In this document: one piece after another, positions 19,466 to 23,968 of the stretch
How positions within the stretch are numbered: the first letter of the stretch is position 1
Layout of the letters: every line of letters starts with the position of its first letter
DNA from: a bacterium
GTDB taxonomy: Bacteria; Margulisbacteria; Marinamargulisbacteria; SXXA01
Length of the DNA stretch: 64,000 nucleotides
Direction: 5' to 3'
Assembly (NCBI GenBank): GCA_947465765.1
Contig: CANIAP010000003.1
Coordinates: 39,393-103,392, forward strand
The notes under the pieces: generated by a model
What the model was told of the DNA's origin: nothing
Database searches by the model: none
What the model saw: the letters and a program-made list of their open reading frames with translations, nothing else
Translations under genes and position numbers: made by a program

Positions 19466-22400
19466 CTACTCCCGCAATCGAATCACCCGATCCCTAAATT
19501 GTTCCACCAGAAGGACCAACTCCGAGCCGGTGGACTGACTCCCCAATAGGCGCTTTGCGAGGACCGCGAGTTCCTCATCGCCCGACGGCAGGGTATGGGT
19601 TTGCTGGTCTTCGAGGAGCTGCAAAAAATGTTCCAATCGGCGAAACAGGAGATAAACCTCTCGGATTTCGTAGGCCAATCCATCGGCGACCACGCCACAG
19701 TCACGAAGCCGTTCCAATGCCGGAAGGGTCCGTCGAATCCATAGCTGGGGGTATCGGTCGAGATGAGAGAGCTGTAATCCTTGAACCCAAAATTCGATAT
19801 CCCGAATTCCACCGGCCCCGTTTTTGATATCGACGCCGCTACCCAATCGCCGTGCTGATTTTCGGATTGCCGCGACCCGCAATTCTCTAATGGTCGACAC
19901 CAATTCCTTGGCTGGAAAACGGGCCAGTCCCGACCGCTTAAGGTCTTCCAGTACGTCAAACCCGATGGCCCAATTGCCGGCAACGGGACGCATTTTTAAG
20001 AGGGCCTGAATCTCCCATTTTGAGGCGGAGTGTGCGTAATATGCGGTGAGCCCCGTGGTCGATGTAACCCATTGGCCCGAGGCCCCGAATGGCCGCAGAG
20101 AGTAGTCCATTCGATAACATTGGCCTTCGTCGGTGAACTCCGACAAATCGGCGTTGACCTGTCGCAAAATCGATTCGATTTGGGTGGTGACGTTGTTTAA
20201 GGATTCTTCTGGAATGCCAGAGAGATCAATAATGGGGATGAGGTCGATATCCGAGCTGTAATTGAGTTCGGTTGCGCCCAGTTTCCCCATTGCCATCATG
20301 CAAAACCGATCGGCCAAGGTGTACGGATCTTCCGGTAGCCGCTTAAAGGCGAAGTCGACACAGGCTTGAATGGCCGACTCTGCGACCAAGGAGATGTCTT
20401 GGTAGATTTCCGGCATCGCAATTTGCAACGTAATATCTTTGATGGCGATTCGGAGCAATTCCCTGCGCTTAAAGAGTCTAAGGCGATTTCGCCACTCCCT
20501 CACCGACTGAGCGGATTGGGCAATTTCCGACAATTCCACAGTGGCACTTCCGCGCAAAAATCGGTGATGGAGATATCCTTTTTGTGTGATTGCCCCAAAA
20601 AACTCGGGGTGTCGGATTAAGGTGTCGGATAAAAATTGACTCACGGAAAAGACGTCTAACAAAATATCGAGCCGAATGGGTTGGCTCAACAATAAATTAA
20701 AATGGTCGGCAGGATCGGACATCTGGGAGACAAATCGCTCCCAATTATTGAGCGCCATGTCGGGGTCCGGTTTATGCCGTAGCCATTCGCAGGCCAAAAC
20801 CACCAATCGTGAAAAATGAGCGGGGCTTCGATCGGCAGCGGCCAAACGCATCAAATTAGCCTCAGCGCGGGCGGGGTCTCGGAATCCGGCGTCGCGGAGG
20901 ACTTTTAAACGAAGCTCGGTGGGAATGCTCGGGTTTAACACAAGGTCGGCGACGTTCGCGAAGGATTGGGATGGCAATGATTGGCGGGAAAAATGGGTTT
21001 GGAGGAAGGTTCTTGCGGTGGCGGTAACGGCTTCGAATTCCATGTGGAGCTGATCGGCGGCGGATAAATGATCCACCCCGTGGTATCCCATTCGACGGGC
21101 CAAATGGTCGTATTCAAGCGAGGCGACGTCGGGTAAAAAGAGATCCTCAGCGGATCCCCGCAGCATTCGGAGGCCGTTGGTGAGTCGCCGCAAAAAGATA
21201 TAGGCCACGATGATTTGAGCCGTTTCTTCTGCGTTGAGAATCCCGGCCTTACGCAATGCAGTCAACGCTTCTCGGATTCTGGGGGTTCTCAGACTTTGAA
21301 GCTTTCGGCCGAGCATAATTTGAAGTGCTTGAACGGTGTATTCGATATCGACCAACGCCCCGGGGCTAAATTTGGCATTCAATCGGGTCGGGGCTTTTTC
21401 TTGGAATTGTTTTTTTCGAAGTTGCCAGAGTTCAGAAAAATCAAAATTGTCGGTGCCATAGACAAACTCATCACGAAGTTTTTCAATTCGTTGTCCGAGC
21501 TGAAGATGTCCGGAAATTCGTCGAAGGCGAACCAGGGCCAATTTTTCATAGATATGGGCGGGGCCATCGGGCCCAAAATAGCGGCAAAAGTTCTCGACGC
21601 TGACGGCCAATGGGCCATCGCTGCCATAGGGACGGAGCCTCAAATCGATATCAAAAATGCCCGATCGTTTCGAGACTATAAACTGCCGTAGCTCGCGCAC
21701 CAACTCCGAAAAAAAGTCAGAATTAGAGATGGGGGATGGGCCGTCAGTTAACCCGTTATCGCTGTACACCAATAGCAATTCGATGTCGGACGCGTAGCCC
21801 AATGCCGCACCGCCGAGTTTCCCCAATCCAAATACGGCGTAGTGAGCGGGGATAATTCCGACGGTCATCGGCGTTCCGTGGCGCCTAATGAGTTCCTCCA
21901 TCAAAAGCCTAATGGCGGTACCGATGACGGCTTCGACGAGGAGTGTCAGTTGTTTCGACAGTTTGAGAATGTCCGTCTGCTCCAAGATATGGCTGAGGTC
22001 GATGAGGAACGTTTCGTGGTCTTTAAATTGGTTAACGATTTGTTTTTTGGCATCCAAATCGGTGACCGGTGCCAGCGCAGCGTCGAGCCGATGTTGGATC
22101 GTGGTTTCTCCCGTGTAAACCGGGGTTTGGTCCGCCTGGGGGCCCAGAACCGGGAGCAATGATTCATAGTGGAGGCGGATGACGTCTTCCCAGAGGTAGT
22201 CACTGGTTCCCAATAATTTAGCCATATCACGGAGTGCCAGTGGGTTAGATAAAAGTTCGATCCATTGGCCTTTTTCGGGGAGTTCCAATATCGAGGTGAC
22301 TAATTGTTCGAATCGGGAAATGGCGTCGAATGGGTTGGGGGCGCGGTCTAGAAAAAAGGTGAACTGTTTGCATAATAAAACCGACAATCGAAGTTGGTCC

Positions 22401-23218
22401 AACAGCTGGGCGGATTCCAGTTTGTTTCCGTTTTGATCGGTGAGTGCAAACGTATCTTGGACCCGCTTCCCCGTTGTGGAGATTGTGAGGTGATCGATAG
22501 ATATTTCATGGTGGGCCAATGCGGTTGAAAATGAATAGAGGAAAAACGGGGTATTTTCGGTAATTAACGTGAGGCGGGTGGCCTCATCGCCGGTGTTATC
22601 GAAGTTGACTTGGACGGGGGATAAAAATTCGGTTTTTTGACCTGTAAAATGTTGGATATAGGTGGCGGCTTGGCGATTTACAATTTGGCTGGCCTCACGG
22701 ATGGCGGCGTCTGCGCCACTTTCGAGAAGTCGGGCCACTGTAATAAATTGTTCCGTGATGTCGAGGCTCCATTTCCTGAACGAAATATTGCTGGTGAGTT
22801 TCCCTGAAAAAAAATCAACCACTTTTCGCCGTTTTAAGCTGTGGACGAGATGACGACGGTCCACAATGACCCGCTGTTTTGCAGTGGCTTGTCCCGGGAT
22901 CGTTGCTGAATATGTAAAGATCTCTCCGGATACAATTTCGACACCATTCGAGCTTAATAATCCGGTAATTAGCGAAAATAGAAACGGATAATTGTAGGTG
23001 AGAATGGTGCATTCCACCCGATCTTCACCGCTTTGGCGAAAGAGTAACGAAATCGGGTGGCCGGTGGATAGCTGCGCCAACCGGGTCAGATGATCGCATT
23101 CCACCTCAAAGTCAAAAAATTCGAAGTAGCGGTCCGGGAGCCGAAAGAGAAAATCGGATACGTCATCTTTCGGGATATCGGGGAGGCTGGCGAGATATCG
23201 ATCCTCCGATGGACGCAT
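19466..23218 (-). CDS. glnE: GlnE-like glutamine synthetase adenylyltransferase/removase with N-terminal ACT domains
   Basis: Two GKLG...SDI nucleotidyltransferase motifs, two LRP.G motifs, two DIE(F/Y) motifs; first ~290 aa ACT-like. Confidence 0.88.
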   Translation of the reverse strand: MRPSEDRYLASLPDIPKDDVSDFLFRLPDRYFEFFDFEVECDHLTRLAQLSTGHPISLLFRQSGEDRVECTILTYNYPFLFSLITGLLSSNGVEIVSGEIFTYSATIPGQATAKQRVIVDRRHLVHSLKRRKVVDFFSGKLTSNISFRKWSLDITEQFITVARLLESGADAAIREASQIVNRQAATYIQHFTGQKTEFLSPVQVNFDNTGDEATRLTLITENTPFFLYSFSTALAHHEISIDHLTISTTGKRVQDTFALTDQNGNKLESAQLLDQLRLSVLLCKQFTFFLDRAPNPFDAISRFEQLVTSILELPEKGQWIELLSNPLALRDMAKLLGTSDYLWEDVIRLHYESLLPVLGPQADQTPVYTGETTIQHRLDAALAPVTDLDAKKQIVNQFKDHETFLIDLSHILEQTDILKLSKQLTLLVEAVIGTAIRLLMEELIRRHGTPMTVGIIPAHYAVFGLGKLGGAALGYASDIELLLVYSDNGLTDGPSPISNSDFFSELVRELRQFIVSKRSGIFDIDLRLRPYGSDGPLAVSVENFCRYFGPDGPAHIYEKLALVRLRRISGHLQLGQRIEKLRDEFVYGTDNFDFSELWQLRKKQFQEKAPTRLNAKFSPGALVDIEYTVQALQIMLGRKLQSLRTPRIREALTALRKAGILNAEETAQIIVAYIFLRRLTNGLRMLRGSAEDLFLPDVASLEYDHLARRMGYHGVDHLSAADQLHMEFEAVTATARTFLQTHFSRQSLPSQSFANVADLVLNPSIPTELRLKVLRDAGFRDPARAEANLMRLAAADRSPAHFSRLVVLACEWLRHKPDPDMALNNWERFVSQMSDPADHFNLLLSQPIRLDILLDVFSVSQFLSDTLIRHPEFFGAITQKGYLHHRFLRGSATVELSEIAQSAQSVREWRNRLRLFKRRELLRIAIKDITLQIAMPEIYQDISLVAESAIQACVDFAFKRLPEDPYTLADRFCMMAMGKLGATELNYSSDIDLIPIIDLSGIPEESLNNVTTQIESILRQVNADLSEFTDEGQCYRMDYSLRPFGASGQWVTSTTGLTAYYAHSASKWEIQALLKMRPVAGNWAIGFDVLEDLKRSGLARFPAKELVSTIRELRVAAIRKSARRLGSGVDIKNGAGGIRDIEFWVQGLQLSHLDRYPQLWIRRTLPALERLRDCGVVADGLAYEIREVYLLFRRLEHFLQLLEDQQTHTLPSGDEELAVLAKRLLGSQSTGSELVLLVEQFRDRVIRLRE

Positions 23219-23221
23219 TCG

Positions 23222-23968
23222 TTATAGCGTCGCCAACACGCTCTTGGCCGTGGCTCGGGTCATCATGGTCCGTGGAAGTTCCAATGGATTTGGGTTTTTG
23301 GATAACGGGAGTAGGGTGACTCGGGATCGAATGGTCATCGCGTATTTGTATCCGGATGATTTGAGTAATGCTTTACCTTCCGCCGTGCAAATTCCAAAAG
23401 GATAAATGTACACATCAATCGGAATGCCCAATTCTTTTTCCAATATTTTTTTGGATAAAACGGCTTCTTTGTCGAAATCAGCGGGCCGTTTGTCCTTGAG
23501 TTTTTGATTCAAAAATTCGTGAAAGTAGCCATGGGACGCAAATTCATTTCCGGAATCTTTGAGCTCGCGAAGCTGGGCCCATGTCATTGCAAATTTCCGG
23601 GTATTGATAATCCCCGGATAAATCGCAAACATGGCGGGTATATGATGAGGTTTGAGTACTGCGGTGGTCGCGTCGTAGGCGGATCGGTTTCCGTCATCGA
23701 TGACCAGTAATATGTTTCGATCACCCGTGACTGTTCCGGATCTGATTTCCGAAAACGTTCGAAACCGATAGCCCTTATTTTCTATGATTCGGATATGGGA
23801 TTTAAACTCGGTTATCGAAAAATCTGTATCAATTTTGGGGCGTCCGAGGAACGTGTGGTAGCACAAAATATGCACTTGGGCCGCTTGAATCGACACGGCC
23901 ATGGTCATGAATCCCACGAGAATAATCGCACAAAAAATAGTCAGGTTTACGAATGAACGGACTGTCAT
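23222..23968 (-). CDS. Secreted polysaccharide deacetylase (IcaB/PgaB-like NodB domain)
   Basis: LCYH, VIDDG, SHGYFH, YPFG; signal-peptide-like N-terminus. Confidence 0.85.
   Translation of the reverse strand: MTVRSFVNLTIFCAIILVGFMTMAVSIQAAQVHILCYHTFLGRPKIDTDFSITEFKSHIRIIENKGYRFRTFSEIRSGTVTGDRNILLVIDDGNRSAYDATTAVLKPHHIPAMFAIYPGIINTRKFAMTWAQLRELKDSGNEFASHGYFHEFLNQKLKDKRPADFDKEAVLSKKILEKELGIPIDVYIYPFGICTAEGKALLKSSGYKYAMTIRSRVTLLPLSKNPNPLELPRTMMTRATAKSVLATL

Follow-up and report, generated by a model that had tools for sequence, protein, structure and literature searches.

Here we describe a fused regulatory enzyme encoded in a 64,000-nucleotide stretch of a Margulisbacteria genome assembly (GCA_947465765.1, contig CANIAP010000003.1, positions 39,393 to 103,392; the whole stretch is referred to as the window, and positions are counted from its first letter). 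The gene (19466..23218 including the stop codon, minus strand) encodes a 1250-residue protein in which, judging from the open reading frame list, its translation and Pfam, a pair of ACT domains of the kind found at the C-terminus of GlnD is followed by two GlnE modules—the first assigned to the adenylyltransferase (AT) class and the second to the adenylyl-removing (AR) class. We refer to this protein as ACT-GlnE. Adenylylation of glutamine synthetase (GS) through the GlnD–PII–GlnE relay is a textbook cascade, and nearly all mechanistic work on it concerns the canonical proteobacterial enzyme. ACT-GlnE is apparently a widespread but undescribed variant of this known enzyme: every mapped member (approximately 120) carries a hidden, GlnD-type putative sensor wired to one catalytic module, and full-text searches for GlnE together with ACT domains, plus broader ones, returned no literature description of a GlnE–ACT fusion. 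In our assessment, the chances are evenly balanced that ACT-GlnE is a GS-AMPylating GlnE with a built-in double-ACT input, the best guess for its ligand being glutamine and the outcome of binding being a shift toward adenylylation.

A GlnD-type tandem ACT module at the N-terminus of GlnE

The preliminary description of this locus had proposed that GlnD-like tandem ACT domains occupy the N-terminus of the protein, over 22350-23218 (residues 1-290). Both motifs quoted in its support are present in the minus-strand translation of 19466-23218, the first, ECTILTYNYPFLFSLITGLLSSNGVEIVSGEIFT, covering residues 69-102 (nt 22913-23014) and the second, LTLITENTPFFLYSFSTALAHHEISIDHLTISTTGKRVQDTF, residues 216-257 (nt 22448-22573). 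When the N-terminal fragment alone was searched, residues 15-276 matched positions 615-841 of the 850-position GlnD model TIGR01693 (E 3e-13), the match starting upstream of ACT1, inside a helical lead-in. Seven more GlnD models matched with E-values between 1e-15 and 5e-3, the best of them (E 1e-15) covering residues 9-279; the eight models together span residues 9-281. The next family after GlnD in the NCBIfam search was phosphoglycerate dehydrogenase (PGDH), with an E-value of only 0.02. The hidden Markov model scan for ACT domains proposed earlier thus succeeded with GlnD models, whereas the Pfam ACT model itself (PF01842) stayed below its gathering score, reaching 17.3 of the 27 bits required and matching ACT2 only (residues 230-266)—which leaves the domain unannotated in databases. 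Full GlnD membership failed, with TIGR01693 scoring 45-62 bits against a cut-off of 519 and no HD domain found in Pfam; what the protein shares with GlnD, according to the eight models and an alignment with GlnD C-termini, is the C-terminal tandem ACT region and the lead-in helix preceding it.

Structure prediction points in the same direction. The AlphaFold2 (AF2) model of residues ~1-300, built on a 17-sequence alignment, had a predicted local distance difference test score (pLDDT) of 86.2 and a predicted template modeling score (pTM) of 0.84, and contained two beta-alpha-beta-beta-alpha-beta units. The recognisable family among the best structural matches (Foldseek, VIA-align) was that of ACT or ACT-like regulatory domains. 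The top match, with a Z of 8.0 over 139 aligned residues (root-mean-square deviation 3.5), was the regulatory domain of threonine deaminase, and further matches included the ACT region of mycobacterial large glutamate dehydrogenase, CASTOR1/2, 1zpv, PurU, aspartate kinase, RelA, PGDH and SerB; structural matches span residues 55-163 (ACT1), and single-ACT matches span residues 199-289 (ACT2). The earlier proposal had been staked on a predicted ACT fold. Since two ACT units are predicted and ACT domains are their structural neighbours, the fusion of a GlnD-type tandem ACT module to the N-terminus of GlnE is confirmed, as far as sequence comparison and structural modeling reach.

The regulatory region can be divided into six parts, all on the minus strand. 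The helical lead-in (residues 1-50, 23069..23218, motif RLPxRYF...H) is homologous to the GlnD segment preceding ACT1; its Y31 and H43 are conserved in the alignment with GlnD C-termini, and helices occupy residues 5-49 in both AF2 models. ACT1 (residues ~55-141, 22796..23056), delimited by AF2 secondary structure, structural matches and conservation, contains strands at residues 56-62, 67-75, 93-102 and 132-141, a helix at 80-90 and the beta1-alpha1 loop YNYPF, with Asn76 at a position that is Asp in 87% of the family. It is interrupted by a basic, low-confidence insertion (residues 103-131, 22826..22912; pLDDT <50 at residues 111-127 in both AF2 models), which is rich in Arg and Lys, varies between ~20 and 55 residues depending on the member, and is present in all aligned ACT-GlnE proteins where GlnD has a gap. 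A linker of two helices (residues 147-167 and 170-194 in both AF2 models; 22637..22780) leads to ACT2 (residues ~202-261, 22436..22615), recognised by its AF2 structure, the weak Pfam ACT match, structural matches and conservation, with the beta1-alpha1 loop ENTPFFLY. Finally, a junction helix (residues 270-303, 22310..22411), defined by conservation and with the consensus LRLSVxLxKQFTxFL..AP.P..A...F, connects ACT2 to the first catalytic module.

Set against the C-terminal ACT1-ACT2 of GlnD, the lead-in and both ACT domains of ACT-GlnE align, and the T..D/N.P loop and D.F strand motifs are common to both proteins. Unlike GlnD, however, the fused protein has neither the GlnD nucleotidyltransferase nor the HD domain, bears the basic ACT1 insertion and a longer inter-ACT linker, continues into the junction helix after ACT2 (the point at which GlnD ends) and carries the module at the N-terminus rather than the C-terminus.

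Two GlnE modules in apparently reversed order

The remainder of the protein matched the Pfam families GlnE (PF03710, 288.6 bits) and GlnD_UR_UTase (PF08335, 112.1 bits), each in two stretches and both far over their cut-offs, and the catalytic G-x-GK-x-GG ... SD-x-[DE] motif is intact in both modules. The NCBIfam equivalog cut-offs for GlnE were not reached (NF008292, 429 versus 487 bits; NF010707, 393 versus 625; NF010706, 328 versus 724). The second module (residues ~800-1250, 19469..20821, minus strand) is AR-class by its 1v4a match, NCBIfam placement and motif: residues 780-1250 scored 154 bits against 1V4A and 94 against 3K7D and fall on the N-terminal (AR) part of all three NCBIfam GlnE models, and the catalytic motif AMGKLGATELNYSSDIDLI (residues 976-994, 20237-20293, minus strand) includes ELNYSSDIDL, identical to that of canonical AR modules. 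The same form, ELNYSSDxD[LIV], was found in 26 of 26 partner modules in the family. The first module (residues ~305-700, 21119..22306, minus strand) was placed by NCBIfam and by motif, residues 290-790 falling on the C-terminal (AT) part of all three GlnE models. Translation and motif comparison locate its catalytic motif, GLGKLGGAALGYASDIELL, at residues 464-482 (21773-21829, minus strand).

All 38 post-ACT modules sampled have the catalytic motif LG[YFV]xSDxEL. The glycine is shared with canonical AT modules (ELGYSSDLDL in E. coli and EPGFFSDLDL in the relative G016), while AR modules have Asn at this position. The second catalytic carboxylate sets the post-ACT modules apart from canonical AT and AR modules alike: SD-x-E-L in 38 of 38, as opposed to SD-x-D-L, a clade-specific Asp-to-Glu change. 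A quick maximum-likelihood tree grouped the post-ACT clade with canonical AT (Shimodaira–Hasegawa-like approximate likelihood-ratio test, SH-aLRT, 94). Canonical GlnE was represented in this tree by the E. coli and G016 proteins only, both long-branched, and the AT label is therefore not based on it; we call the post-ACT module AT-class on the grounds of profile, motif and exclusion rather than phylogeny. A search with the AR half for diverse canonical GlnE proteins gave only ~1250-residue ACT-fused forms among its best 120 matches.

These features both link ACT-GlnE to E. coli GlnE (946 residues; 1V4A is its AR and 3K7D its AT part) and separate it from that enzyme. In common are two polymerase-beta-type modules with a GlnD_UR_UTase (HEPN-like) domain after each of them, intact GKLGG...SDxD/E motifs in both modules and a GSI-beta with a Tyr397-type site as the likely substrate. 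ACT-GlnE differs in having ~300 extra N-terminal residues and the AT-class module first and the AR-class module second—the reverse of the canonical AR-then-AT order of E. coli—as well as in its scores under the equivalog cut-offs and its long-branched post-ACT module with D-x-E in place of D-x-D. Moreover, both activities of the E. coli enzyme depend on PII, whereas no PII was found in the host of ACT-GlnE.

A conserved unit in a widespread family

A profile of the N-terminal module retrieved 7335 proteins at E≤1e-3 from a library of 1.84 billion proteins, and 325 clusters (50% identity) were obtained for the ACT module at E≤1e-30. The family is annotated only as "glutamate-ammonia-ligase adenylyltransferase", and those of its members that are named belong to Desulfobacterales, Thermodesulfobacteriota, Lentisphaerota, Pseudomonadota metagenome-assembled genomes (MAGs) and the window's own lineage. 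Dissection of 171 proteins—the window protein, its first homologues including four GlnDs, and the best 150 matches to the ACT module—revealed three layouts with abutting domain boundaries (ACT2 denoting here the pair): ACT2-AT-AR (61 proteins), ACT2-AT (at least 42) and AR-ACT2-AT (at least 17). In all ~120 mapped members, the ACT pair stands directly before the same kind of module and never before an AR-class module, and a single clade (SH-aLRT 100) on a stem of length 1.16 takes in all 38 post-ACT modules sampled. Because this coupling between the ACT pair and the module clade is invariant, and because the clade has its own motif with G for N and D-x-E, the ACT pair and the post-ACT module look like one regulatory unit. 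The predicted structure of residues 1-720, modeled on 94 sequences (pLDDT 90.6, pTM 0.86), is consistent with a sensor docked in a fixed arrangement on the catalytic module.

The beta1-alpha1 loop is the usual ligand site of ACT domains. Among 94 members, near-invariant positions occur in this loop of ACT2 ([D/N]222, T223, F226, L227 and Y228) and in the D.F strands of the two ACT units. Within the regulatory region, conservation is highest in the junction helix, in which K284, F286, L290, P294, P296, A299 and F303 are each kept in 93-97% of the 94 sequences. This pattern bears on an alternative that we consider quite improbable, namely that the ACT pair binds no ligand and acts as a structural, oligomerisation or docking module that replaces the central regulatory region found in canonical GlnE—e.g., by keeping both catalytic modules, or the GS dodecamer, in position, or by binding PII where PII is present. 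The pair does sit at the inter-domain position of canonical GlnE in the AR-ACT2-AT layout, Pfam ACT models barely recognise the module, the long, basic and disordered ACT1 insertion is a possible docking element, and ACT-like dimerisation domains that bind no ligand exist (e.g., the plant bHLH ACT-like domain among the structural matches). However, conservation is among the highest in the beta1-alpha1 loops, where ACT domains classically bind their ligand, and the module persists in genomes in which no PII was found.

In the close clade of the window protein (P0001-P0004), both ACT loops have Asn (N76 in YNYP, codon 22991-22993, and N222 in ENTP, codon 22553-22555). This paired D-to-N change may alter the affinity or the specificity for the ligand.

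Glutamine synthetase as the probable target

A single GS was found in the assembly, a GSI-beta encoded outside the window (G000:C3:30813-32237; G000 is the window's assembly) that carries PLDKDIYDLPPEE with the Tyr397-type site, the adenylylation tyrosine being kept in KDIYDLPPEE. Among 41 related genomes, YDL occurs at this site in 17 of 17 carriers of the fusion. GlnE-type genes in the class were found in genomes with the ACT module and in G016, which has a canonical GlnE, and all of these have GSI. The fused gene also recurs beside glnA: in the relative G028, glnA lies directly upstream at a distance of 80 bp, and in the delta proteobacterium NaphS2 (L044:1-11834) and a 3.39-Mb ENA genome (L043:1-11894), where it lies ~240 bp upstream, the fused gene closes a conserved nitrogen cluster with the order gltD-like, carA, carB, class-II amidotransferase, glnA and then ACT-glnE. 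Since NaphS2 is cultivated and has the same layout beside glnA, the idea of a built-in sensor is open to a bench test.

From these observations, GS would be the substrate of ACT-GlnE. A highly improbable alternative is that the enzyme nucleotidylylates another protein, not (or not only) GS, its GlnE-like modules having been recruited for a different switch. Such a role would fit the scores below all three NCBIfam equivalog cut-offs, the long stem and unusual D-x-E motif of the post-ACT clade and the lack of a nitrogen-metabolism neighbour within the window, but it is at odds with the adjacency to glnA at four independent places, G028, NaphS2 and the ENA genome among them, with the adenylylation tyrosine conserved in every one of the 17 class carriers, and with the finding of GlnE-type genes in the class only in ACT-module genomes and G016, all with GSI.

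We also considered the GS site as a marker for the presence of GlnE and rejected it: even relatives without a detected GlnE keep the tyrosine, and a tendency toward YDL versus YEL is weak and confounded by relatedness. Two further observations concern GS itself. The enzyme of the window genome shares 75-84% identity with its counterparts in Spirochaetota, Kiritimatiellota, Verrucomicrobiota, Desulfobacterales, Brocadiia and Lentisphaerae MAGs, and several of these are encoded on contigs that match ACT-GlnE contigs in length (39559, 341826, 90758, 28534 and 35981 bp); possibly the two enzymes travel as a pair, or perhaps unusual conservation is just a trait of this clade of GS. The relative G009, where the search for GlnE was negative, has a GS gene (G009:C4:3029-4400) that is broken by one TGA and one TAG in its N-terminal part and may be a pseudogene or the product of an assembly error.

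PII and GlnD in the host and its relatives

A check of the host genome for glnD and glnB had been recommended in the preliminary description, and neither gene was found. In G000, searches for PII with the Pfam model and with four lineage-specific queries by tblastn (best E 0.19) were negative, as were searches for GlnD with Pfam and NCBIfam models, whose sole match was the fused gene itself. The same Pfam, NCBIfam and lineage-specific PII queries detected neither PII nor GlnD in G001, a member of the same genus that is 97% complete, nor in four further carriers at least 91% complete (G002, 96%; G007, G022 and G023, 91-92%). AmtB was likewise not found in the whole genomes of G000 and G001. In class members with PII, the PII gene adjoins amtB (G011, G020 and G016) in a GlnK-type arrangement, and G016 is the only one of the 41 genomes with a true GlnD, together with two PII genes and its canonical GlnE of 1010 residues. 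With no PII or GlnD found in the host and its relatives, ACT-GlnE must work without PII in this host.

A possible built-in sensor and its ligand

Taken together, the predicted features would fit a fused enzyme that reversibly AMPylates GS and whose regulatory input is supplied by its own GlnD-type double-ACT module, either replacing PII or adding to it. The order of the cassette—lead-in, ACT1, two-helix linker, ACT2, junction helix and, without a linker, the AT-class module, followed by the AR-class module—suggests an allosteric path from the ligand loops through the junction helix to the AT-class active site. A small ligand would most likely be bound at the ACT1 and ACT2 loops, with glutamine as the best guess, and the junction helix would relay the signal so as to shift the balance toward adenylylation of the conserved tyrosine on the single GSI-beta. 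One protein would then act as both sensor and actuator of post-translational GS control in a host where neither PII, GlnD nor AmtB was detected. The analysis shows the architecture, the fold, the linkage of the ACT pair to one module clade, the tyrosine site of GS and the failure to detect PII and GlnD; from these we infer that GS is the substrate, that the ACT pair binds a ligand, that this ligand is glutamine and which way binding shifts the activity. A more far-reaching version seems to us tentative and somewhat doubtful as a whole: in bacteria without PII and GlnD, the glutamine-bound ACT pair would turn on the AT-class module via the junction helix and shut off GS, replacing the GlnD–PII relay, and the ACT pair plus AT module would be an ancient, portable cassette of single origin that spread across many phyla in three layouts with respect to AR.

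Several findings weigh against a built-in glutamine sensor acting on the adenylylating activity. The AT assignment of the post-ACT module is not secure, as this module ties between the two E. coli structures in sequence score (109 versus 106 bits; BLASTP, 118 versus 108) and in fold (Foldseek, 3k7d 6e-19 versus 1v4a 2e-18), and its NCBIfam placement is mixed in the other two layouts. A tree constrained to place the post-ACT clade beside canonical AR was not rejected by an approximately unbiased (AU) test (p 0.61) and was 8 log-likelihood units better than the quick free tree. The neighbours of ACT-glnE in the window are unrelated housekeeping genes, with glnA ~27 kb away on the opposite strand. 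Regarding PII, G000 is 75% complete, and PII is similarly rare in class members that carry the fusion (3 of 17) and in those that do not (4 of 24). Furthermore, in NaphS2 and five more carriers of its order (Desulfobacterota-type, 6 of 6), 2-5 PII genes accompany a full-length GlnD that scores over the curated cut-off. Given this coexistence, independence of PII is a property of this host and is not shown for the family. The suggestion that the fusion compresses the GlnD–PII–GlnE cascade into one protein therefore fits the host, in which neither PII nor GlnD was found, but not the six Desulfobacterota-type carriers that keep both. An anticorrelation of the fusion with PII or GlnD was also considered and is rejected by these same counts.

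The GlnE of E. coli senses glutamine directly via its C-terminal AT domain (as summarised in bioRxiv 10.64898/2026.09.02.748916), that of H. seropedicae AMPylates GS without GlnB and responds to glutamine, likewise via its AT domain, with a half-maximal inhibitory concentration of ~87 uM, that of S. coelicolor is independent of PII and GlnD, and that of R. rubrum ignores glutamine (all bioRxiv 10.64898/2026.09.02.748916). The H. seropedicae and S. coelicolor enzymes match what is proposed for ACT-GlnE in AMPylating GS without unmodified PII—the former being itself glutamine-sensing—yet they are canonical AR-AT proteins without ACT domains, and their hosts encode PII and GlnD. Since a canonical AT domain already responds to glutamine, the ACT pair may sense something else; and since direct glutamine sensing and PII independence are documented for ordinary GlnE, the pair is not needed to explain PII-independent glutamine sensing. 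The same facts limit the surprise of a concept that is not wholly new. Thus, the PII-independent control attributed earlier to the fusion agrees with the failure to find PII in the host, but it is not specific to the fusion.

Homology to GlnD, which cannot respond to glutamine without its ACT domains (Zhang et al. 2010, as cited in PMC11190351), suggests glutamine as the ligand. A precedent is the Chlamydomonas reinhardtii alpha-amylase AMA2, in which a GlnD-like ACT domain (GlnD/ACR-type) fused in front of the enzyme leads to activation by glutamine (PMC11190351)—a fusion showing that the GlnD-like ACT module is portable. AMA2 differs in having a single ACT domain that pairs by dimerisation and in being a eukaryotic starch enzyme, and its ACT sequence is unrelated to that of ACT-GlnE beyond the family level. 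Mutagenesis of the amylase ACT domain did not pin down the glutamine-binding residues (PMC11190351), GlnD-type ACT domains in general have no established ones, and the sequence does not reveal the ligand. In addition, Asp stands at both loop positions in 87-90% of the family, as against Asn in the window's clade.

A rather unlikely, though substantial, alternative is that the ACT pair senses another metabolite—glutamate, 2-oxoglutarate, or the GS feedback inhibitors Ala, Gly, Ser, Thr and Trp—as a second input beside the glutamine site of the AT module. As a class, ACT domains bind many different amino acids, which counts in its favour. Canonical AT senses glutamine without ACT domains, which would make a second, fused glutamine sensor redundant, and in the Desulfobacterota-type carriers the fusion coexists with GlnD, itself a glutamine reader. 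The D-to-N change in both ligand loops of the window's clade points the same way, as does the closest structural match, the Ile/Val-binding regulatory domain of threonine deaminase IlvA (9D2S, 8Y1J). Like ACT-GlnE, IlvA has two ACT-like units side by side, with its amino-acid effector sitting between them; it differs in its ~10% identity, its Ile/Val effector and its catalytic partner. Against another ligand, only the C-termini of GlnD, together with their lead-in helix, are related to the module at the sequence level, and glutamine is what GlnD-like ACT domains have responded to in the tests made to date (PMC11190351). If the pair does read glutamine or another nitrogen metabolite, the cascade would be shortened or given a second input, and the PII-less hosts would represent a natural minimal system.

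Genomic context of the fused gene

Homologues aligning from the first residue onward support the start codon of ACT-glnE, and this ATG lies 3 nt past the TAA of the upstream polysaccharide-deacetylase gene (window positions 23216-23224). The gene is the last of a co-directional string of eight, comprising nadC, udg, a kinase gene, aroA, two deacetylase genes, a HAD hydrolase gene and ACT-glnE. A promoter-like site with 10 of 12 matches was observed at 28953-28924, at the start (nadC) of the string that ACT-glnE closes.

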